NCBI GenBank assembly: GCA_047601445.1
Contig: JASGJH010000001.1
Location: 5,792,001-5,856,000 of the forward strand
From: Myxococcales bacterium
Lineage (GTDB): Bacteria; Myxococcota_A; Polyangia; Polyangiales; DASUME01
Length of the DNA: 64,000 nucleotides
Reading direction: 5' to 3'
Shown here: positions 21,976 through 32,941 of the stretch, in pieces
Position numbering within the stretch: the first letter of the stretch is position 1
Layout: each line of letters opens with the position of its first letter
Made by a program: the position numbers and the translations under genes
Notes under the pieces: model-generated
Databases searched by the model: none
The model's input: the letters and a program-made list of their open reading frames with translations, nothing else
What the model was told of the DNA's origin: nothing

Positions 21976-23493
21976 TCAGGCCTTCAAGAATGGGACGATC
22001 TTGCTGGCATCGGTGCGCAGTCGATCGGGCCACATCGTCTTGGGATCGCCGTAGGAGTTGTCCGTGAACTGGGAGCCGTAACCCTTGAGGCCGCCCGACT
22101 CGAATTCGCTCGCAGGCACGCCCATGGCTTGGAGCACGGTGGCGAGCCACTGGTTGTAGAGCAGGCCCGCGAACTGGTCGCGCCACTTGCGGTTGGAGTT
22201 CACCGCGCGGTAGTCGACGTAGTTGCCCGTCTTGAGGAAGCCGGCGGCGCCACCCGCGGTGACGAGGGGCAGACCCACCGGATCGTGGGTGCTCTCGCCG
22301 GACTCCTGGGTCCACATCATGAGGGTATTGTCGAGGTAGGTCTTGCCGTCGGCTTCTTCCACGTTGAGCTTGTTGGCCAGATCCAGGAACACGTTCTCGA
22401 AGATGTGCTGGTACGAGGCCACGAGCAGCGCTTGCTTGTCGGGGTTGGTGGCCTGGTGGGCCACGTCCTGATGCCAGTCGCCGTTGAAGGCGGTCCAGAG
22501 CTCCATCGTGTACATGGTGCAGATGCGCGAGGTGCCACACATGAAGGCCGCGGCGATCACGTCGTTGAACACGTCGTAGAACTGCGTGCTGCCCGCGACG
22601 TTGGTGGAGTTGTTGCCGAAGCCCGAGGAGTTCTTGTCCACGCTGGTGCCGGGCGCCTGCACGTTGCTGCAGGAGGCCACGACGTTCACGCGGCGCTCGA
22701 GCTCGGAGAGGCGCGCCATGTGGTCGTCCAGGCGCTGCTTGTCCGCGGCCGACAGCCGCTTGGCGTCACCGAAGGCGCCGTTGCGTAGCTGCTTGTAGTT
22801 GTCGAGCACGCGATCCACGACCGGCACGCGGGCGCTCGTGGTGGTGGTGGGCGGCACGAAGATGCTGTCGAACAGCTCCTTGGAGCTGAAGCTGGTGGGC
22901 ATCGACTGCACGCTGCCCGACTTGGTCTGCGGGTTGGAGTAGTTCCACGAGATGCCATCGGTGGCGATGTGCATCGAGCGCTGCTTGATGCTGCTCAGGT
23001 TGCTGTAGAAGGAGGGCGACCAGGCCATCACCTGGTCGATGGTGGGGACGTAGTTGATCGGCGGGTTCTGGTCGGAGCGCCCGAAGTTGCCCAGATGGCC
23101 GCCCGTGTGGTGCGCGATGTAGAAGGGCAGGTCGAAGCCGCGGATCACGTTGATGCGCGACAGCACGCTAGACGAGAGGTTGGCGGACGCCGCGTTCAGG
23201 ATGTTCGAGAGCGAAGCCTTGCCGCCGCTGCTGCTGGTGGCGAGGTTGCCGCGCCGCACGGTGTGGTCCGAGTAGAGCGCCTGGCTCTCGGTGAGCAGCG
23301 AATCACTCGGAAAGAAGTTGGCTCCGGTAACAGCGCCGTGGGGACTCGTGATGGCCACGAACCTGGGTAGGGCCACGAAGCTCTGGGCCTTCGCGCTGGA
23401 AGGCAGGAGCGATGGCAACCACGGTAGTGCGAGGGCGAAACCGCCCGCGCCGCGCAGGAACTGACGTCGGCTGTGATTGGTGATGACGCTCAT
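21976..23493 (-). CDS. Tat-exported DUF1552-type protein
   Basis: SRRQFLRGAGGFALALPWLPS Tat signal; TIDQVMA, DKQRLDDHM, AFMCGTSR, TYLDNTL motifs. Confidence 0.85.
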   Translation of the reverse strand: MSVITNHSRRQFLRGAGGFALALPWLPSLLPSSAKAQSFVALPRFVAITSPHGAVTGANFFPSDSLLTESQALYSDHTVRRGNLATSSSGGKASLSNILNAASANLSSSVLSRINVIRGFDLPFYIAHHTGGHLGNFGRSDQNPPINYVPTIDQVMAWSPSFYSNLSSIKQRSMHIATDGISWNYSNPQTKSGSVQSMPTSFSSKELFDSIFVPPTTTTSARVPVVDRVLDNYKQLRNGAFGDAKRLSAADKQRLDDHMARLSELERRVNVVASCSNVQAPGTSVDKNSSGFGNNSTNVAGSTQFYDVFNDVIAAAFMCGTSRICTMYTMELWTAFNGDWHQDVAHQATNPDKQALLVASYQHIFENVFLDLANKLNVEEADGKTYLDNTLMMWTQESGESTHDPVGLPLVTAGGAAGFLKTGNYVDYRAVNSNRKWRDQFAGLLYNQWLATVLQAMGVPASEFESGGLKGYGSQFTDNSYGDPKTMWPDRLRTDASKIVPFLKA

Positions 23494-23676
23494 AGGGGGA
23501 ACGACCCTATCAGCCGAGCCTGGTGGTCGATACCCAGCCCACCAAAAACAACCCTTCTGGGTACCTAAACGAGCGCCTGTGCCCCGCTTCGCACGCTTTC
23601 GAACAAACCCAACGAGTCTAGGGCGGTGACCTACGCCGGCGCCAACGTGCTTGAAGCAGCGCTCGCATGGTGGGCT

Positions 23677-25527
23677 TCACTCCGCTTCCGCGCTGCGGCT
23701 ACGGAAGCTCGGCAACAGCGCCAGGCTGCGCAGCGCGTCGCGCACGCTGTGGCCGCCGGCGAGCTGGGCGCGCACTGCCTCGAGTGAGCAGCCGTCACGC
23801 GACTCGTCCTCCGCGCGCGATCCCGCAAAGCGGACCACTTGGCGCGCAAAGCAGGCCCCGACCTTGCCGCTCTCCGCCAGCATGTGCGCCAGATCCGTGG
23901 CGCCTTTGGACGAGCGCGTGTCGTCGGCCCAGACACGTGGCGTGCTGGCGGTGTCGAGCGTCAGTTGGGAAAGCAAGGCGCCGTCGGCCGCGTACACCGT
24001 CTGTGTCGAGCGCAGTCGCCCGAGTGCGTCGTAGTTCTCCGTGGCGAAGCCGAGTGCGTTCAGCTGGGTGCCGTGACAGCCATTGCAGGTGGTGCCCGGC
24101 TTCTGCGTGAGCGCCTCCACGACCTGGCGTGTGGTTCCGTTCGCCGTGGGCTCGGGCGCGACCAGGGCTGCGTTCGGGTCGGGCGTTCCCAGCTTGTCGC
24201 ACAACAAACGCTCGCGCAGGAACACGCCCTTCATGATGGGCCGCGTGTTTCCGCTGGCCGAGGACAACAGAGCCGCGCGCGTGATCAAGCCGGCGCGCTG
24301 CCCGTCGGGAAATCGCGGTGGCTCGTCGAGGCCGTTCCAGGTGGGGACGCCATAGATGGACGCCAGCTCTGCGCCACGGGCGAAGGAGTAGGGACTGAGC
24401 AGCCAGCCCTCGAGCGTGTCGGACGCGGCGAGCCCGTGGTACGCGAATGAATCGGCCACCTCCGCCAGCATGTCTTCGCGCAGGGTGCCGCTCGGCAGGT
24501 TGGTGCCGGCGAACGCCTTGTAGCGCGGATCGTCGTGCAACACGTCGAGGGGCGTCAGGTAGTCCACGTTCAGCCACTCCCGGGCGAAGCTGCGCAGTCC
24601 CTGCTCGGCACGGGGGTCCCCGAGCATGCGATCGACGGTGGCCACGAAGCCGGTCTCGTCGTCGAGCTCGCCGCGCTCGGCCGCCAGCAGCAAGTCCTCG
24701 TCCGGGGTGCTCCGCCAAAGCTGAAACGAGAGGCGAGTCGCCAGCTCGTAGCGTGAGAGCGGCACGCTGGTTCCGGCGGGCGCTGGCGGGCCCACCTGCT
24801 GGACCTCGTAGAGGAACTGGGGCGAGTTCAGGAACACCACGATCAAGTCCGACAGCCCGTCTCGGTCCAGCACATCCGGCGACGCATAGACCTCGTGGAA
24901 GAACGCGGTCTCCTCGGCGCCGAGCGGATGGCGCAGCACCAGCCGGCCAAAGCGCGCGATGAAGCGGTCGATGCATGCATGGGGATCGCTGCAATCGCCG
25001 AGCAGCTGGTCCATGCGGGCGTCGTCGGCGCTGACCGCGGCGCCGATCTCGAGGCTCGCGTTGTAGTAGCCCTGCACGTGGGCATCGGACATCGCCTGAT
25101 CCATGCGCGCAAAAGGGGCGAACTTGGAGACCGAGTCCGTCGGTAGTGCACCGAGCGCGCTGCGTACCGCGGGGATCGCGAGGACCTCGTCCGCCAGGGC
25201 GCCGCCCGAGGTGCCCTCGAGGGCGAGATGCAGCGAGCTCACGTACTCGGCGCGCGAGAGTCGTCGCAAGGGTAGGTTGGCGCTCGGGCTGTCGGCATCG
25301 CAGCGAAACTCGAGTGCCGTCGCATGAGCCTGGAGATCGCCGGGTGTCTCGCCGGGTTCCACCTCGCCCTCATTCCAGGGACGATCATCGGTCTCGGAGA
25401 TGGGGCCTGCCGGTGCGAGCCGAGAATCGGCGCACGACGCACTGAGCAGGAGCGCCGCCGCGGCGCTGAGTGGCGAGAGCAAACATGGAAGGGAGCAGGA
25501 CAACCGTACGGGAGAGCGTGCGGGCAT
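23677..25527 (-). CDS. DUF1587/1595/1592/1588/1585-type lipoprotein
   Basis: PLRRLSRAEY, SPQFLY, YELATRLSFQLWRSTPD, RAGLIT, CNGCH, LGFATENYDALGR; lipobox-like LSASC; start uncertain. Confidence 0.85.
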   Translation of the reverse strand: MPARSPVRLSCSLPCLLSPLSAAAALLLSASCADSRLAPAGPISETDDRPWNEGEVEPGETPGDLQAHATALEFRCDADSPSANLPLRRLSRAEYVSSLHLALEGTSGGALADEVLAIPAVRSALGALPTDSVSKFAPFARMDQAMSDAHVQGYYNASLEIGAAVSADDARMDQLLGDCSDPHACIDRFIARFGRLVLRHPLGAEETAFFHEVYASPDVLDRDGLSDLIVVFLNSPQFLYEVQQVGPPAPAGTSVPLSRYELATRLSFQLWRSTPDEDLLLAAERGELDDETGFVATVDRMLGDPRAEQGLRSFAREWLNVDYLTPLDVLHDDPRYKAFAGTNLPSGTLREDMLAEVADSFAYHGLAASDTLEGWLLSPYSFARGAELASIYGVPTWNGLDEPPRFPDGQRAGLITRAALLSSASGNTRPIMKGVFLRERLLCDKLGTPDPNAALVAPEPTANGTTRQVVEALTQKPGTTCNGCHGTQLNALGFATENYDALGRLRSTQTVYAADGALLSQLTLDTASTPRVWADDTRSSKGATDLAHMLAESGKVGACFARQVVRFAGSRAEDESRDGCSLEAVRAQLAGGHSVRDALRSLALLPSFRSRSAEAE

Positions 25528-25886
25528 CGGTGCTAAGGGTCGGCGCGCCGGTGCCCCGCGCGCCAACAAATTGATGACGCCCAGCAAACTTGCGGGTTTC
25601 ATGCGCGGTGGCGTGAGCGACGGGCTCACGTTCGAAGACTGGGGCCTCGCGCCGGTCGGAAGGGCACAAGGACTTGTCCTCTCGGAGGCGAGCGAGCCAG
25701 ATGGTGGGGCACCGGCACCTCGCGGAGTGCACCGCGATCGTGGTGCCCACACCTACATTCACCTCAAGGTCCTCCGCGTTCTCTGCGGGAAGCGAGTCGA
25801 CCCCAGAATCAGTTCACTCCTTAGGCGTCAGTGGCCTGGTTGTGTAACGCTACGGCCCGCGACCCCACACCACGCGAGGATCGACA

Positions 25887-26885
25887 ATGAGTTCAAGGCA
25901 GCTTGGCTGGCTCTTAGGTAGTTCTCTGTTGTTTTCATTGGCGGCGTGCGACGTCAGCGTCGGCAAGTGCGATGAGGACGCGGGCTGTTTCGACGGCTTC
26001 GGTGACGGAGACGGTGATGGCGACGGCGACGGAGACGGCGGCCAGATGGACGGCGGCCACACGGGCGACGGCGGCCATAACCCGGGTGATGGCGGAAGTA
26101 AGGATGGGGGCCCGAGTGGCGGGGACGCGGGCACGGACGCCGGCGACATGTTTACTGGCGACCCGCTCACGCTGAGCCAGTTCTGTGAGGCGTATCAAGG
26201 ACGTCGCGTGCAGTGGGCCACGGCACTCGAGGACTGCTGCATGGGCGACCCCGAAGCGAACGGCGCGAACGCCACGACGATTCTCAACTTGTTTGGCCCG
26301 GATGACGGCGCCAACGTCTGTATCAACAAGCATCAGCCTTTCATCACGGACGGCAGCGTGGTCTTCCACGCGGACAAAGCCGGTGCCTGTGCCGACGCCT
26401 TCCTAGCTCAATACGCCACCCCGCCCGCGACCTGTCCGCCCGGTGGTTTCGATTCGGAGCTGCTGCGTGCGACCGTGGCCCATGGCTCGCAGTTGATTCA
26501 GCAGATCCCAGCCTGCCGCGCGGCACTCGAAGGCAAGGTGGCCGAGGGCAGCCCGTGCAGTGACTCCATCCAGTGCGCTGGCGGGAACCGCTGCTACCTG
26601 GGCAACGGCGCCCAGAACACCTGCCAAAAGCCCAAGGTCGCCAACGGCACCACGGGTGCGTGCGCCGATTCCTCGGCCATGTGCGCGGACGGCACCATCT
26701 GCGTCGGCAACAACGACAGCACTCGTTTCTGCGCCAAGGTCGCGGAGCTCAACCAGACCATCAGTTGCTCGAACTCCCGTGAGTGCGGCGCCAACTCGCT
26801 GTGCTCGGTGGAGAACGTCAAGATCGGCGGCACGTGCACCGCGTACAGCGCGGCCAACCACGCCGACGACGTCTGCGCTCCCTGA
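25887..26885 (+). CDS. Cys-rich lipoprotein with (GD)n linker
   Basis: Lipobox LAAC, GDGDGDGDGDG tract, many C-terminal cysteines. Confidence 0.85.
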   Translation: MSSRQLGWLLGSSLLFSLAACDVSVGKCDEDAGCFDGFGDGDGDGDGDGDGGQMDGGHTGDGGHNPGDGGSKDGGPSGGDAGTDAGDMFTGDPLTLSQFCEAYQGRRVQWATALEDCCMGDPEANGANATTILNLFGPDDGANVCINKHQPFITDGSVVFHADKAGACADAFLAQYATPPATCPPGGFDSELLRATVAHGSQLIQQIPACRAALEGKVAEGSPCSDSIQCAGGNRCYLGNGAQNTCQKPKVANGTTGACADSSAMCADGTICVGNNDSTRFCAKVAELNQTISCSNSRECGANSLCSVENVKIGGTCTAYSAANHADDVCAP

Positions 26886-26924
26886 GCTCGACAGCCCTCG
26901 GGAAACGCCAGCTGAATCACGAGT

Positions 26925-26956
26925 GAGCCCGCCTGAGCGATCAGGTGGGCTCTTTC
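26925..26956 (+). terminator. Intrinsic terminator-like hairpin
   Basis: GAGCCCGCCTGA-GCGA-TCAGGTGGGCTC (12-bp stem, one G-U, GNRA loop) followed by TTTC. Confidence 0.7.
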
Positions 26957-26974
26957 ACATTGCCAGATTGACGG

Positions 26975-27066
26975 AATAAAAAAGGCAGCCAGGCGGGGGG
27001 GGGGATGCCAAGCTGCCTTGCGTACCGTCGAGCGGGGGGGTGCTCTTTATTGACGGGCACGCACGT
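26975..27066 (-). ncRNA. Candidate sRNA with two C-rich stem-loops
   Basis: Sigma54-type promoter, hairpin with ACCCCCCC loop, hairpin with ATC10 loop, then T6 tract; no credible ORF. Confidence 0.75.
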
Positions 27067-27076
27067 CCTGAAACAA

Positions 27077-27092
27077 TGCGAGGAGCGTGCCA
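27077..27092 (-). promoter_or_regulatory. Sigma54 (-24/-12) promoter
   Basis: Minus strand TGGCACG-CTCC-TCGCA versus consensus TGGCACG-N4-TTGCW; GG and GC correctly spaced. Confidence 0.75.
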
Positions 27093-27200
27093 GACACACA
27101 GCGCACGTGATCATGAAGCTTTTTCAAAATTGAATCGCCGAAGGTCCTTCGGGATTGCAATGCCTTGCAGGTCGGCGTTTCAAGTTTGCACGACTGCGCA

Positions 27201-29438
27201 TCACTCCGTACGTAAACTCACATGCTCGCCAAGGGGCAAATCCCAGGGTGCATCCGGATTCTCGAGGGCGTGATAGCGGCTGTAGGCCCCCAGCACCCGG
27301 CGCACGTAGTTTCGAGTTTGCTCCACCGAGATCCGCTCCACCCAGCTATCGAGCTCCACCTTGCCCGTGCCGACCGGCGGGGTGCGCTCTTCGTCTTCGG
27401 GCTCCTCGCCCGAAGCGGGTCGCTCGGTGGACTTGGACTTCTTGCCGGGCACGGCTCCCAGGGAGCTGTCGATACGCTGGGTACCGGCGTTGTAGGCGGC
27501 GATGGCCAGCGGGTACTGGCCGCGGTAGCGGGTGACGAGGCCCGAGAGGTAGCGGGCGCCGAGCGCGACGTTCACATAGGGGCGCATCAGCGAAGCCCGG
27601 TCGGCGGGAATCTTGAGGCCGGAGGCGACGGCCGCGGCAGTGCTGGGCAGGAGCTGCATGAGTCCGAGCGCGTCGGCACCCGAGACCGCGCGGGGCTTGT
27701 AGCGGCTCTCGACCTGCATGTGTCCATAGAAGAGGGCGCTCGGCAGGTCTTGTTGGGCCGTGCTCTCGGAAACGCTCGTGGCGTAGGGCCGGGGCAGCAA
27801 GGCCTCCCAGAGCCAACGTTCCGCGGGAGTCGGCGCGCGCGCGAGGATGTCCCCCATCAGAGGCTCGGCTGCCGAGTAGGTCTGGGCTGCATCTCCGGTC
27901 GCGCTCAGGGCTGCGATGCGGGCGTAGCGGTCGGGTTGTGTCTCGAGCCAGGCCTTGCCCGCTTCGGAAGCTTCCGCGTTGAGGCCGAGCGCGCGGTAGA
28001 ACATCACCTCCGGCGGCGGCGCGAGGGTGGGCATCGAGGGCAGCGGCGTGGTGGCGTCGAAGGCCTGCGGCGGCGGTTCGCCGAGTGCCACCAGTCGGCG
28101 GGCGGCTAGCTGGGCGTAGTAGCCGAGGCGATCTTTGCTCAAGGTCTCGGTGAAGGCCTGCTTGGCGCGCTTGGGATCGCGCCCGAGCAGCGCGGTGCGA
28201 CCTTGCCAGTAGCTCACGCGGGCGGCCCACAGGGGCTTGTCGGCCAGACGCGCGCATTCGTCGAGCCAGCGGGCGGCGTCGAGTGCATCGCCGCGCTCGA
28301 AGGCGAGCCAGGCCAGGTCCCAGGTGGCGTCGCGACGCAGACCGGGAGCGCGCTTGGCCTCATCGGAACTCACGAAGGTCTTGAGCGCGTCACGCGCCGA
28401 GGCCCGCTTCTCGCGCGCGCTGAGCCAGGCCGAGAGGTAGAGTGCGTCGGGCGTGAGCGAGCTCTTGGGGTACTTCTTGGCGTAGGCCCGGTAGCGCTTG
28501 ATGGCCTGGGCGTCCTTGCCGGCGCGCGAGGCGGAGCGGATCGCGTGGAACGCGTCGTAGGCTTCGGTGTCGCCCTCGAGCTTGGCCGCTTGCGCGAAGG
28601 CTCGCTCGGCCTCGGGGTAGCGCTTGCGCGTGCGGAAGAGCGCATCTCCGCGCAGGTGCCACAGGCGCGCGCGCAGCTTGGCTGGGGTCTGCTTATCGAG
28701 GGAGGCGAGCTCCTGGTGAGCAAGCTCGGGCTGGCGCGCTGCGAGCAGCTCCTCCGCGCGCCGCAGGTGTTCGTCCACGCTGAGGCGCAGCGGGCCGGCG
28801 CCTTCGAGCACGCTCAAGCAGTACTTGGCTTCGGCGTGGGCGGGGTGCTCGATGTAGAGCGCGTGCGCCAGCGGCAGGGCTTCGGCTTGGTTGCCGAGGG
28901 ACACCAGCGCGCGCACGCGCATGCCGCGCGACGAGGGATCCGTGGCGTCCGCCAGAAGCGTGGCAGCGCGCGCGAGGTCTCCTGCCGCATAGAGGCAGCG
29001 CCCCAGCAGGCGGGTGGCTTGTGTGCTCGCGCTGCTCTTGGGGGCGGCACTCTTGACCTCTTCCTCCAGGGCTGCGCAGCGCCCCGCGCCGGCGGCCCAC
29101 TGCACGCGCAGAGCGCGGACGTCGGCCTGGACCCGGGCGGGCCAGCTGTCGGGCGTACGCGGAAAGGTGTCGAGCGCTTGATCGGGCTTTCCGAGCTCGG
29201 CCAACGCGCGTGCGCGCAGGTAGCTGGCCTCGGGGGTGAGCGCAGAGGTCTCACTCGAGAGCAACGCCAGCACCTCCTCGTAGCGGCCGTCCGAGAGGGC
29301 TGCCACGGCCTCTGGCGGAACGAGCGGAGCGGCCGCGACGCGCGCGGGCCCTTCCGGGGCTCCGCGGCGCGAAACCGAAGGCCACCATGAAATGGCTGCA
29401 ATCAGGGCAAAACCAACGATTCGGGCGCGTGCTGGCAC
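27201..29438 (-). CDS. Soluble lytic transglycosylase (Slt-like) with TPR region
   Basis: C-terminal VESRY, ALGLMQLLPSTA, AAYNAG, EQTRNYV; helical N-terminal repeats; start uncertain. Confidence 0.9.
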   Translation of the reverse strand: MPARARIVGFALIAAISWWPSVSRRGAPEGPARVAAAPLVPPEAVAALSDGRYEEVLALLSSETSALTPEASYLRARALAELGKPDQALDTFPRTPDSWPARVQADVRALRVQWAAGAGRCAALEEEVKSAAPKSSASTQATRLLGRCLYAAGDLARAATLLADATDPSSRGMRVRALVSLGNQAEALPLAHALYIEHPAHAEAKYCLSVLEGAGPLRLSVDEHLRRAEELLAARQPELAHQELASLDKQTPAKLRARLWHLRGDALFRTRKRYPEAERAFAQAAKLEGDTEAYDAFHAIRSASRAGKDAQAIKRYRAYAKKYPKSSLTPDALYLSAWLSAREKRASARDALKTFVSSDEAKRAPGLRRDATWDLAWLAFERGDALDAARWLDECARLADKPLWAARVSYWQGRTALLGRDPKRAKQAFTETLSKDRLGYYAQLAARRLVALGEPPPQAFDATTPLPSMPTLAPPPEVMFYRALGLNAEASEAGKAWLETQPDRYARIAALSATGDAAQTYSAAEPLMGDILARAPTPAERWLWEALLPRPYATSVSESTAQQDLPSALFYGHMQVESRYKPRAVSGADALGLMQLLPSTAAAVASGLKIPADRASLMRPYVNVALGARYLSGLVTRYRGQYPLAIAAYNAGTQRIDSSLGAVPGKKSKSTERPASGEEPEDEERTPPVGTGKVELDSWVERISVEQTRNYVRRVLGAYSRYHALENPDAPWDLPLGEHVSLRTE

Positions 29439-29471
29439 GGCTTTCTTCGATTGTCTATGCTGCGGCCCACC

Positions 29472-29933
29472 ATGCGCCACGAGCTGTCGTTGAGACTGGC
29501 ATCTTCCGCGAAACTTCGCACCGGTTTGCGCGCGCTCGCAGTGTCGATGGCGGTTCTCGCCGCGGCCGGCTGCGCGCCCAAGCTGGGCGACGGCTGCAAG
29601 CGCACCCAGGAGTGCTCGGTCAACGGGGATCGCACGTGCGACCAATCCCAACCCGGCGGCTACTGCACCATTCCCAATTGCTCTGGCGGTAGCTGTCCCG
29701 ACGACGGCGTGTGCGTCCGCTTCCAGCCCGACGAGCCACGCCTGTCACAGTCGTGGTGCATGGCTTCCTGCGACAACACCCGTGACTGCGATCGCGATCG
29801 CTACGTGTGCCGCACCGCCGCGCAGCTGAACCAACAGAGCACGGAGGACGTCACCGGCCAGACCCCCAAGGTGGCCGACGTCCTCGACGACAACGAGAGC
29901 CGCAAGTTCTGCGTCGTGGACAGCAAGGACTAG
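29472..29933 (+). CDS. Small Cys-rich lipoprotein
   Basis: Lipobox AAGC; PGGYCT..C...C pattern common in myxobacteria. Confidence 0.8.
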   Translation: MRHELSLRLASSAKLRTGLRALAVSMAVLAAAGCAPKLGDGCKRTQECSVNGDRTCDQSQPGGYCTIPNCSGGSCPDDGVCVRFQPDEPRLSQSWCMASCDNTRDCDRDRYVCRTAAQLNQQSTEDVTGQTPKVADVLDDNESRKFCVVDSKD

Positions 29934-30879: not shown

Positions 30880-31688
30880 AGCGCCTGCTGGCGGCGCCTT
30901 CGGTCTGGCTGTGTGGGGCGTTCTTGTTGGTCGCGGTGTTCGGCCCCTGGGTGGTCTCCACCTCGCCTTTTCAGATCGATCTCGCCCATGCCTACGAGTC
31001 GCCTAGCGCCGCGCACTGGCTCGGCACTGCCGACAACGGGGTGGATTTATTGAGCGCCCTGGTCCACGGCGCGCGCCTCGCCGGCATCATCTCCGCCAGC
31101 GTGGTCGGGGTGTGCCTGCTGGTGGGGGGCCTGTTGGGCGCTCTCTCGGGCTTGGTGGGAGGCTGGTTCGAGCACGCACTGATGGCGCTCTCGGACCTGC
31201 TGCAAGCTTTCCCGGCCGTGCTCCTCAACATTGCCCTGCTGGCATTGGTGTCTCGGCCGGGCGTCGAGCACGTGGTGCTCTCCCTGTGCATGAACGGTTG
31301 GGTGCTCTATGCGCGCCTGGCTCGGGCGGAGGTGCTTGCGCTGCGGGATCGGGAGTTCGTGCATGCCGCGCGCGCCCTGGGGGTGCCGGAGTCGCAGGTC
31401 CTCCTTCGTCATCTCGTGCCGAACTTGATAGGGCCCTTGGTGGTCCAGGCCACAGCTGGCTTCGGAAGCGCCATTCTCATGGAGTCGACGCTGTCCTTTT
31501 TGGGGCTCGGACCGGCCCGTTCGGTGTCCTGGGGGGCCCTGCTGGATCAAGGAAGCGCCGTGCTCCTGCGCTTTCCCCACGTGGCGCTGGTCTCGGGCGG
31601 CGCGATGGCGGCGGTGGTCCTGTGCTTCAACCTGGCCGGGGATGCCCTCCGAGACGCGCTCGATCCACGTCTGAGGGGGCGCGCGTGA
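30876..31688 (+). CDS. Peptide/nickel ABC permease (DppC/OppC-like)
   Basis: HWLGTADNGVD, EFVHAARALG, ESTLSFLGLG, GDALRDALDP. Confidence 0.92.
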   Translation: MKRLLAAPSVWLCGAFLLVAVFGPWVVSTSPFQIDLAHAYESPSAAHWLGTADNGVDLLSALVHGARLAGIISASVVGVCLLVGGLLGALSGLVGGWFEHALMALSDLLQAFPAVLLNIALLALVSRPGVEHVVLSLCMNGWVLYARLARAEVLALRDREFVHAARALGVPESQVLLRHLVPNLIGPLVVQATAGFGSAILMESTLSFLGLGPARSVSWGALLDQGSAVLLRFPHVALVSGGAMAAVVLCFNLAGDALRDALDPRLRGRA

Positions 31689-31750
31689 AGGCGCGAACTT
31701 GCAGTACACTCTGGGTCTTGCGACAACCTTCGCAGATGGGGCGAGAGGCG

Positions 31751-32941
31751 ATGTTCCGCTGGCTAGTGGCCGGCGGCTTGGGGTTGTTGGCGGCTTGCGT
31801 AGAGCCCGCGCGTTCGGCGGACGTCGCCCCGGCGAGCAAGGGCGGTCCCAGCGCGGCCGAGAGCGCCACGCTCACCAATACCGCGAGCCAAGAAGAGCAA
31901 GCGGGTCCAGCTGAGCCCACGGCAACGCCTGCAGAGGCAGCGGCTGCGAGTCCGTCGGGGCAGGATGCCCCAGCCCCCAACAGCGCGGCGGGAGATCATT
32001 TCTTCGGCGAGCCCGATGCACCGATCCGCGACGCGCTCGCGCACAAGAACATCGTCAGCGTGGAAAAGGGCCGCGGCGGGCGCAGCCTGGGCTTCAAGAT
32101 CGTCCTCGAGGGCGGGCACAAGGGCTACTTCAAGGGCGAGCAAGTCTTCTCGGCGGCCAACTGGTTCGGCGAACTCGCCGCCTATCACCTGGATCGCATG
32201 CTCGGGCTAAACCGCGTGCCCGCCATGGTGAGCCGACAGTTCGCCTGGTCCCAGCTGGAGCCCGCGGCCGGCGCCGATTGGCGCAAGCCCGAGATGATCA
32301 TCCGCAACGGTCAGGTGCGTGGCGCCTTCGTCTCGTGGGTCACCGGCGGGGTGCGGCCGCTGGTGCAGCAAGAGGGCTGGGAACGCTGGATGCGGGTCAA
32401 ATACTGGCCCACCTCCCTGGTGAGTCCGTTTCAGCGGCCCGCCGTGTGGGCGGCCGAGCTCGCCCAGGTGCGGCGCCTGGGCGAGGAGTGGCGCAGCAAG
32501 GAAGAGCGCGCGCGCATGCGCGGCCTGCGGCCCGAGCCGGATCGTCCCGATCGTCCCTCCGAGCTCAGCGACCTCATCGTGTTCGACTACTTGATCCGCA
32601 ACCTCGATCGCTGGGGTGGCGGCAACGCCAACGTGTTGATCCGCGGCGAGCACGGTCCGCTGATCTTCCTCGACAACGCTGCGGGCTTCGAGCCTGGTGA
32701 GCCGCGCCCGAGCTTGATGGAGGCGCGCCTGCACGCCCTACAGCGCTTCCGTCGCAGCACCATCGCCGCGGTGAAGGCCTTCGATCTCAAGAAGTACGAG
32801 GCGCGCCTGGCCACCGAGCCGCTGCAGCCGGTGCTCACTGCGGCACAGCTCGAGGCGCTCGAGATCCGCCGCAAGGCCTTGCTGAGCTGGGTCGCCGAGC
32901 AAGAGCGCACTTACGGCGAAGCCATTTGGGCCTGGGAGTAG
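31751..32941 (+). CDS. Lipoprotein with Fam20C/Four-jointed-like atypical kinase domain
   Basis: Lipobox LAAC; GYFKG, ELAAYHLDRMLGLNRVP, SDLIVFDYLIRNLDRW, LIFLDNAAGF. Confidence 0.75.
   Translation: MFRWLVAGGLGLLAACVEPARSADVAPASKGGPSAAESATLTNTASQEEQAGPAEPTATPAEAAAASPSGQDAPAPNSAAGDHFFGEPDAPIRDALAHKNIVSVEKGRGGRSLGFKIVLEGGHKGYFKGEQVFSAANWFGELAAYHLDRMLGLNRVPAMVSRQFAWSQLEPAAGADWRKPEMIIRNGQVRGAFVSWVTGGVRPLVQQEGWERWMRVKYWPTSLVSPFQRPAVWAAELAQVRRLGEEWRSKEERARMRGLRPEPDRPDRPSELSDLIVFDYLIRNLDRWGGGNANVLIRGEHGPLIFLDNAAGFEPGEPRPSLMEARLHALQRFRRSTIAAVKAFDLKKYEARLATEPLQPVLTAAQLEALEIRRKALLSWVAEQERTYGEAIWAWE

Follow-up and report, generated by a model that had tools for sequence, protein, structure and literature searches.

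A window of 64,000 nucleotides from the genome of a Myxococcales bacterium, by which the whole stretch of analysed DNA is meant, very probably contains a stand-alone gene for a small regulatory RNA. Judged from sequence comparison, the most likely reading of this RNA is that of a remote Pxr relative which has been relocated and belongs to the regulon of the activator PxrR, because the sites upstream of it rank highest in the genome for pxr-type enhancers, a PxrR orthologue is encoded in the same genome and C-loop elements occur at the pxr position in related genomes. The whole explanation, a stand-alone PxrR-driven C-loop small RNA (sRNA) with remote kinship to Pxr that pairs with mRNAs, is regarded as probable.

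The sigma-54 (−24/−12) promoter TGGCACGCTCCTCGCA lies at 27092-27077 of the minus strand and is followed by the predicted 92-nt RNA (27066-26975, subtype A), in agreement with the sequence, coordinates and strand given by an earlier sequence-only reading. The start site at 27066 is that expected from sigma-54 geometry, and transcription from it is very likely. Hairpin 1 (27019..27063, minus strand), supported by folding and covariation, consists of a variable stem and the loop ACCCCCCC with seven cytosines at 27040-27034. Hairpin 2 (26983..27018, minus strand), supported by folding, is at the same time the terminator stem AGGCAGCU/GGCUGCCU and carries the loop AUCCCCCCCCCC with ten cytosines at 27004-26995; it runs into the U-tract of an intrinsic terminator (U6-A-U2, 26975..26983, minus strand), which is conserved in an alignment of 17 copies (A1). 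Two abutting C-loop hairpins with a U-tract had been claimed for the minus strand and were borne out: the 97 nt from 27066 fold with −39.0 kcal/mol and z = −5.82, none of 200 shuffled sequences being equally good, versus z = −2.94 on the plus strand. The pattern TGGCAY-N7-GC with C5 18-60 nt downstream occurs at 33 places in the 9.5-Mb genome and, by eye, just the window copy and its paralogue show a compact pair of C-loop hairpins with a closing U-tract. C10 runs exist twice in the genome, counting both strands.

The upstream neighbour is slt (27201..29651, minus strand), coding for a TPR-repeat soluble lytic transglycosylase (Pfam SLT, 4.6e-23) whose true start probably lies later than that of the longest open reading frame; its stop codon is 108 nt before the promoter of the RNA. 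Downstream follows a convergent gene (25887..26885, plus strand) for a Cys-rich, lipoprotein-like protein of 332 aa without Pfam match, which has its own hairpin at 26921-26956. Elsewhere in the window a gene pair DUF1552 and DUF1592/1588/1595/1585 (21976-25752, minus strand) and a protein (31112-32941, plus strand) that weakly matches Fam20C/HipA-like kinases were observed.

Matches to the element were found by blastn at E<1e-3 in 9/9 same-genus genomes; matches outside the genus were short chance matches and were rejected. From the RNA part alone of the 17 aligned promoter-bearing copies a covariance model (R1) was made, to which the window RNA scores 78 bits, a self-derived value as this RNA was among those used for building. 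R1 gave 28 matches at E<1e-5 in 10/10 genomes of the genus, two to four per genome, and all 28 possess TGGCA-N8-GC 5-26 nt before the model start. Seventeen of these copies had been chosen with the promoter and 11 without; the promoter-free model thus found a promoter in 11/11 of the latter (chance 0.001 per placement) and in none of the six weak matches examined out of 10 listed. Subtype A is located behind slt in 9/9 loci, with the convergent 332-aa neighbour in 7/9; subtype B is found near ruvB, a cNMP-binding or a flavin oxidoreductase gene and sometimes in tandem, and subtype C between SspB-like and Crp-like genes. The genome under study has subtype A and one B sibling (G000:C1:6132628-6132724, minus strand, z = −4.34), and a search by nhmmer revealed no third copy in it.

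In the 17-copy alignment 94% of the cells pair. The covariation score of 0.243, a kind of score which kinship inflates, was reached by none of 500 shuffles, and slid controls remained at or below 0.044. This covariation sits in hairpin 1, where four of the six outer pairs are changed on both sides among the 17 copies; the 8-pair base of hairpin 2 is 99% paired and shows little covariation because it is nearly invariant. The loops of the genus consist of about 79% C and about 15% U and contain no G. A three-hairpin C-loop RNA of the same genus (L264, G008:C554:4979-5189, minus strand) was missed by R1.

The element might be merely the 3' untranslated region and terminator of slt, accompanied by a promoter-like sequence that arose by chance. 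It does lie close behind slt on the same strand, in all nine subtype A loci, and no strong terminator was seen between slt and the element, so that the slt mRNA may end here too. However, the 28 copies keep their promoter behind differing upstream genes, which argues against a mere slt terminator; the spacing of promoter and enhancer is retained in copies behind unrelated genes, each tandem copy (G002:C903, G006:C44) has its own promoter, and neither the first hairpin nor the C loops are needed for termination. This explanation is therefore highly improbable. The independent sigma-54 sRNA gene which the sequence-only reading had proposed is well supported by the promoter, loops and stems conserved in relatives, the promoter being kept in every one of the 28 genus copies.

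Two enhancer-type sites, both absent from that earlier reading, precede the promoter on the minus strand. The distal one, GTGCAAACTTGAAA (27178..27191, 13.9 bits), is a TTKCA-N4-TGMAA palindrome and a putative binding site of the PxrR orthologue; it lies 99 nt before the −24 element and outscores every other single site at the 334 sigma-54-like promoters of the genome. The weaker proximal site TTGCAATCCCGAAG (27147..27160) is found 68 nt before the −24 element, with similar positions in relatives, and forms one half of the best-scoring pair. Tandem TTKCA-N4-TGMAA sites also stand before 11/11 pxr-type metagenome loci, 90-170 nt ahead of the promoter. An enhancer matrix counted from 31 sites of pxr promoters was scored on the 334 TGGCAY-N7-GCW sites of the genome and ranks the window copy and its sibling 1st and 2nd, whether single sites or pairs are compared (20.9 and 20.2 bits for the pairs, the third of the 334 reaching 9.4); the matrix is not blind, since the motif was first spotted in Polyangiales loci, and kin are also not independent. 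Scores above the 95th percentile of the control were obtained for 25/27 entries of the genus, 32/38 other myxobacterial entries and 2/18 from other phyla, counts from which four weak candidates (L125, L149, L156, L255) were left out. An initial version of the enhancer motif, in which the half-sites stood in opposite order, fitted only part of subtype A and was dropped.

In Myxococcus, PxrR (Nla19, MXAN_1078) is essential for Pxr synthesis (accessible part of PMC10217877). One clear orthologue, an NtrC-type activator, is encoded in the genome at G000:C1:2163703-2165220 on the minus strand. It shows 54% identity and 484 bits versus 353 for the next candidate, has the identical helix SSTTLWRKMKR and is sister to five PxrR rows with an SH-aLRT of 99 in a quick tree. 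A distinct high-scoring orthologue is present in 39/61 genomes of the order. The gene is 3.6 Mb away from the window RNA, and the closest activator gene carrying a GAFTGA-like motif lies at a distance of 75 kb from this RNA. The activator genes that adjoin the RNA in three other records (L108, L112, L113) are not PxrR orthologues. On the strength of the sites and the helix, control of the window RNA by the PxrR orthologue appears likely. Directly behind this orthologue (L374, G000:C1:2163300-2163700, minus strand) lies a gene for a single-domain receiver without C-loop hairpin; it is preceded by a sigma-54 promoter of the CGGCA type with two strong enhancer sites. In many genomes of the order pxrR is followed by such a receiver gene, which may be regulated by PxrR as a protein-coding target or be co-transcribed with a one-hairpin RNA.

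The window RNA had been proposed to be either a remote Pxr relative or a new family. Formal membership in Pxr did not hold: in 26000-28000 of the window an Rfam search gave four chance-level matches and no match to Pxr (RF01812, with a cut-off of 80 bits) at E<=10. In a control with the Pxr model, 10 of 12 metagenome loci scored 111-129 bits, one 49.9 and one not at all. True pxr loci (n = 11) were obtained from metagenomes alone, L281 of that scan not being pxr; all 11 pxr-type loci adjoin an activator gene and lie downstream of it. The Rfam family search for Pxr yielded two chance matches in the genome under study and none in 151 genomes of the phylum, where few candidates were scored; probe patterns for Pxr matched in 0/251 genomes, and with two mismatches in 8/48, level with the reversed control. 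In the other direction R1 gives pxr genes 6-14 bits only. The remote-relative part of the proposal is supported by the enhancers, the PxrR orthologue, the positional counterparts and a partly shared terminal stem.

Both RNAs have a sigma-54 promoter, identified by sequence in the window, tandem TTKCA-N4-TGMAA sites upstream and an orthologous activator with identical helix, and both belong to hosts without Hfq. In each, a long first stem carries a C-run loop (ACCCCCCC in the window versus UCCCCCCC in pxr loci) and a terminal G+C stem is followed by a U-tail. The bases of the terminal stems are related (GCAGCUYG versus GCGGCCCG): the invariant 8-bp terminal stem of Pxr, GCGGCCCG/CGGGCCGC, a segment deduced from the primers GV611 and GV683, differs from the genus consensus GCAGCUCG/CGAGCUGC by two compensated pairs; the window copy reads GCAGCUUG/CUGGCUGC. 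According to the accessible part of PMC5684412 this stem was found essential in Pxr. In contrast to Pxr, which has three hairpins with a short middle one and the C loop in the first only, the window RNA has two hairpins, both C-looped. Furthermore, it has no Rfam Pxr score, does not adjoin pxrR (pxr itself is found directly downstream of pxrK-pxrR) and belongs to a family of two to four dispersed or tandem siblings per genome in Polyangiales. Two Cystobacter paralogues of Pxr also fold into two hairpins, as stated in the accessible text of PMC5568312.

Of 30 pxrR loci of the order that were fetched, the gene end was readable in 28. Five of these (G011, G013, G033, G051, G055) show an enhancer and one C-loop hairpin directly behind pxrR; G005 has a degenerate hairpin and G575 a clear one, and altogether C-loop elements occupy the exact pxr position in six genomes from at least four families. 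In 23/28 loci no clear C-loop hairpin was found behind pxrR, and behind the orthologue of the genome under study enhancer and promoter are kept without one. The element of G575 (L170) combines a first stem close to that of Pxr with the terminal stem GCGGCCCG, has a C loop on both and scores 27 bits with the Pxr model. Just downstream of this Pxr-like element lies a second copy with its own promoter (L170:934-1065, minus strand).

As an alternative to common descent, the window RNA may be a real sigma-54 sRNA that was recruited independently by the PxrR orthologue and has no ancestry in common with Pxr. There is no significant match at the RNA level in either direction, and the same design is found with other activators and enhancers in Desulfovibrionaceae and Coriobacteriia, so repeated origins or transfers of it are possible; a renewed origin under one regulator is also conceivable because C-loop hairpins are simple. 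Against this stand the C-loop elements at the pxr position in six genomes, the intermediate L170 and the GCRGCYCG-like terminal stem, a loosely defined pattern based on the genus and Pxr, which is present in 26/26 genus, 17/27 other myxobacterial and 0/17 other entries. Independent recruitment is thus rather unlikely, and common descent of the window RNA and Pxr is the probable reading.

The design is not limited to the genus. Among 150 genomes, 15 outside of it gave weak R1 matches, some representing the same design behind a sigma-54 promoter and several others chance. Among these relatives the number of hairpins varies from one (G020, G328 twice, G366) and two (G369) to three (G016, G046, G211, G379) and at least four (G383); near-identical RNAs exist in the Polyangiales records L198, L207 and L208. 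A pattern of promoter and two C5 runs, which has a background, matched 230/301 genomes of the order, a tally including the unpublished G359; in genus g8 it was found in 49/55 versus 10/55 in the reversed control, and in family f16 the control was equally high. The stricter pattern of enhancer, promoter and C5 matched 7/301 genomes of the phylum (6/49 in the order) but misses the window RNA itself and is too strict to speak on absence; its one match outside the order was rejected, as the fold is unlike that of a member. Several arrangements were observed on the way: at least four consecutive hairpins with the loop AUCCCCCCUCC on each (L095, G383:C22), a two-hairpin RNA directly before tmRNA (L099, G369:C205) and three tandem copies of promoter plus one hairpin within 800 bases (L189).

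A scan of species genomes revealed at least 120 loci, at least 29 of which pass a fold filter. The matches listed come from myxobacteria, Coriobacteriia and related Actinomycetota, Desulfovibrionaceae, Candidatus Kuenenia, an Oligoflexia and a Gemmataceae bin. No sRNA family exceeded its cut-off when 20 related loci were searched against Rfam; below it, ar7 reached at most 35.6 of 60 bits and ar14 26.4 of 58.8. The Coriobacteriia/Actinomycetota family (L143, L148, L155, L164, L168, L187, L195, L211, L231, L251, L368) has a sigma-54 promoter without pxr-type enhancer, and its first loop CUCCUCCCCCCUCA is a near-perfect anti-Shine-Dalgarno sequence. In the anammox organism Candidatus Kuenenia (L159) a sigma-54 promoter precedes four C-loop hairpins and a U8 tail.

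One related locus (L173) lies behind a GAYTGS activator and has the site published for DVU0679 of Desulfovibrio vulgaris, an organism with four sigma-54 ncRNAs (accessible part of PMC4641369). The published promoter of the DVU0679-linked ncRNA matched one locus in 121 genomes, at the published coordinate (G624:C1), with the published binding site, three C-loop hairpins, a U-tail and z = −6.38. Expression of this RNA, Dv_sRNA2, was confirmed by tiling arrays, its function being given as unknown in the accessible part of PMC3333781. Since Dv_sRNA2 shows three C-loop hairpins, at least one organism expresses an RNA of this design, with another activator in control. Dv_sRNA2 resembles the window RNA in its sigma-54 promoter, C-loop hairpins and U-tail, and shares with pxr an activator gene directly upstream. 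It differs by the GAYTGS activator with another helix, the site CGTGCG-N4-CGCACG, the three hairpins and the lack of stem similarity; at the window the sites are of the pxr kind and no GAYTGS activator gene adjoins.

The Cuckoo family (CcsR, ar14) of Alphaproteobacteria is an analogous sRNA family (accessible part of PMC4615179). Its modular adjacent hairpins of varying number recall the one to at least four hairpins among the window relatives, whereas its loop is CCUCCUCCC instead of C7 and C10, and ar14 and ar7 have alphaproteobacterial hosts with Hfq; neither ar14 (RF02344) nor ar7 (RF02342) matched the window in the Rfam search. In LhrC, RsaE/RoxS, RNAIII and RepG, mRNA leaders rich in G are bound by C-rich loops that are left unpaired, among them loops of terminators. 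These RNAs differ from the window RNA by their phyla and promoters, and none matched the window in Rfam.

The proposed mechanism would start with the PxrR orthologue binding the tandem TTKCA-N4-TGMAA sites and activating sigma-54 transcription of the window RNA and its sibling. In the 92-nt product two stable stems would display C7 and C10 as unpaired loops, and the second stem would also serve as terminator. The C loops would then most likely initiate pairing with numerous mRNAs at G-rich ribosome-binding regions and lower their translation in an Hfq-independent manner; searches of this genome, which is 98.7% complete, revealed neither Hfq nor CsrA. In this way the window RNA would act in trans as a translational repressor, the role that the sequence-only reading had proposed. 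The loops appear to be the functional part because the stems vary freely and the loops keep C5-C12, and because a single C-to-A change in the Pxr loop abolishes function (accessible part of PMC5568312). In proximity-ligation data Pxr was found at several mRNAs close to their Shine-Dalgarno sequence, according to a figure legend of the preprint 10.1101/2025.09.11.675593, and its direct targets are called uncharacterised in the accessible part of PMC11928866. With the window RNA, Pxr would have in common its ancestry or at least its regulon: an ancestral C-loop RNA behind pxrR may have been copied elsewhere, with the number of hairpins being varied.

A genome-wide search for targets had little specificity: −8 kcal/mol, a cut-off applied before the costs of mRNA opening, was passed by 2770 and 2520 of the 7302 gene starts from a crude gene caller. 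G5 runs at the Shine-Dalgarno position occur at 157/7302 gene starts from the crude caller, about twice the flanking rate, and G6 runs at 30. It is plausible that such starts form a pool of targets, which is not a target list. Two individual candidates were rejected, the gene for the pyruvate dehydrogenase beta subunit, with the preceding G run kept in 3/29 orthologues, and typA, where the G run (9/27) lies in an apparent promoter spacer and others have a C run. A homopolymer G or C run in the apparent promoter spacer upstream of typA was observed in several genomes (L405-L434).

Alternatively, the product of a real PxrR-controlled gene may act as a sponge that titrates a poly(C)-binding protein, comparable to the GGA loops of CsrB/RsmZ and CsrA. 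One to at least four interchangeable hairpins, free stems, C5-C12 loops, siblings and two-component control are the design of sponge RNAs. In addition, pure C runs pair badly with GGAGG, and in its accessible part PMC5684412 allows target pairing or chaperone binding for the Pxr loop. CCUCC or CUCCU occurs in only 7/53 genus loops, which are thus not perfect anti-Shine-Dalgarno copies, but in 36/147 loops over all groups; this frequency, the mRNA contacts of Pxr and the excess of G5 runs at Shine-Dalgarno positions speak against a sponge, as do the lack of a candidate protein and of CsrA in the genome. A sponge is accordingly considered unlikely, and for the loops pairing with mRNA is the function to be expected on balance.

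The RNA family is not in Rfam 15. In the literature accessible outside subscription papers, no description was found of C-loop sRNAs or pxr relatives in Polyangiales, of a PxrR binding site or of the structure of Dv_sRNA2. The present work supplies a predicted PxrR binding site and ties the orphan Desulfovibrio ncRNA Dv_sRNA2 to the same C-loop design. A broader joint reading can be offered tentatively, as it is rather doubtful: Pxr may have arisen late, as a specialised form within an ancient class of sigma-54-dependent modular poly-C-loop RNAs, and the circuit of PxrR and RNA may predate the split of Myxococcaceae and Polyangiales. The design would also serve unrelated activators in Desulfovibrionaceae, Coriobacteriia and anammox bacteria, as a general Hfq-free two-component output for broad translational damping or for titration of a poly(C)-binding protein.

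For M. xanthus, the expectation is that these RNA genes would be transcribed there from their own promoters, and for a pxr deletion in this organism a complementation assay is established. Pxr, which is processed to a short form and blocks the development of fruiting bodies, is a textbook sRNA and the gatekeeper of multicellular development, said to be recent and to belong to one suborder, its origin being placed in the Cystobacterineae (accessible parts of PMC5568312 and PMC5684412). The present data suggest that myxobacteria have had the Pxr-type control circuit for longer, and in more lineages, than the literature states. If Polyangiales share the activator, the enhancer and the position for C-loop RNAs, the circuit would be much older than claimed and would have existed before its role in Myxococcus.
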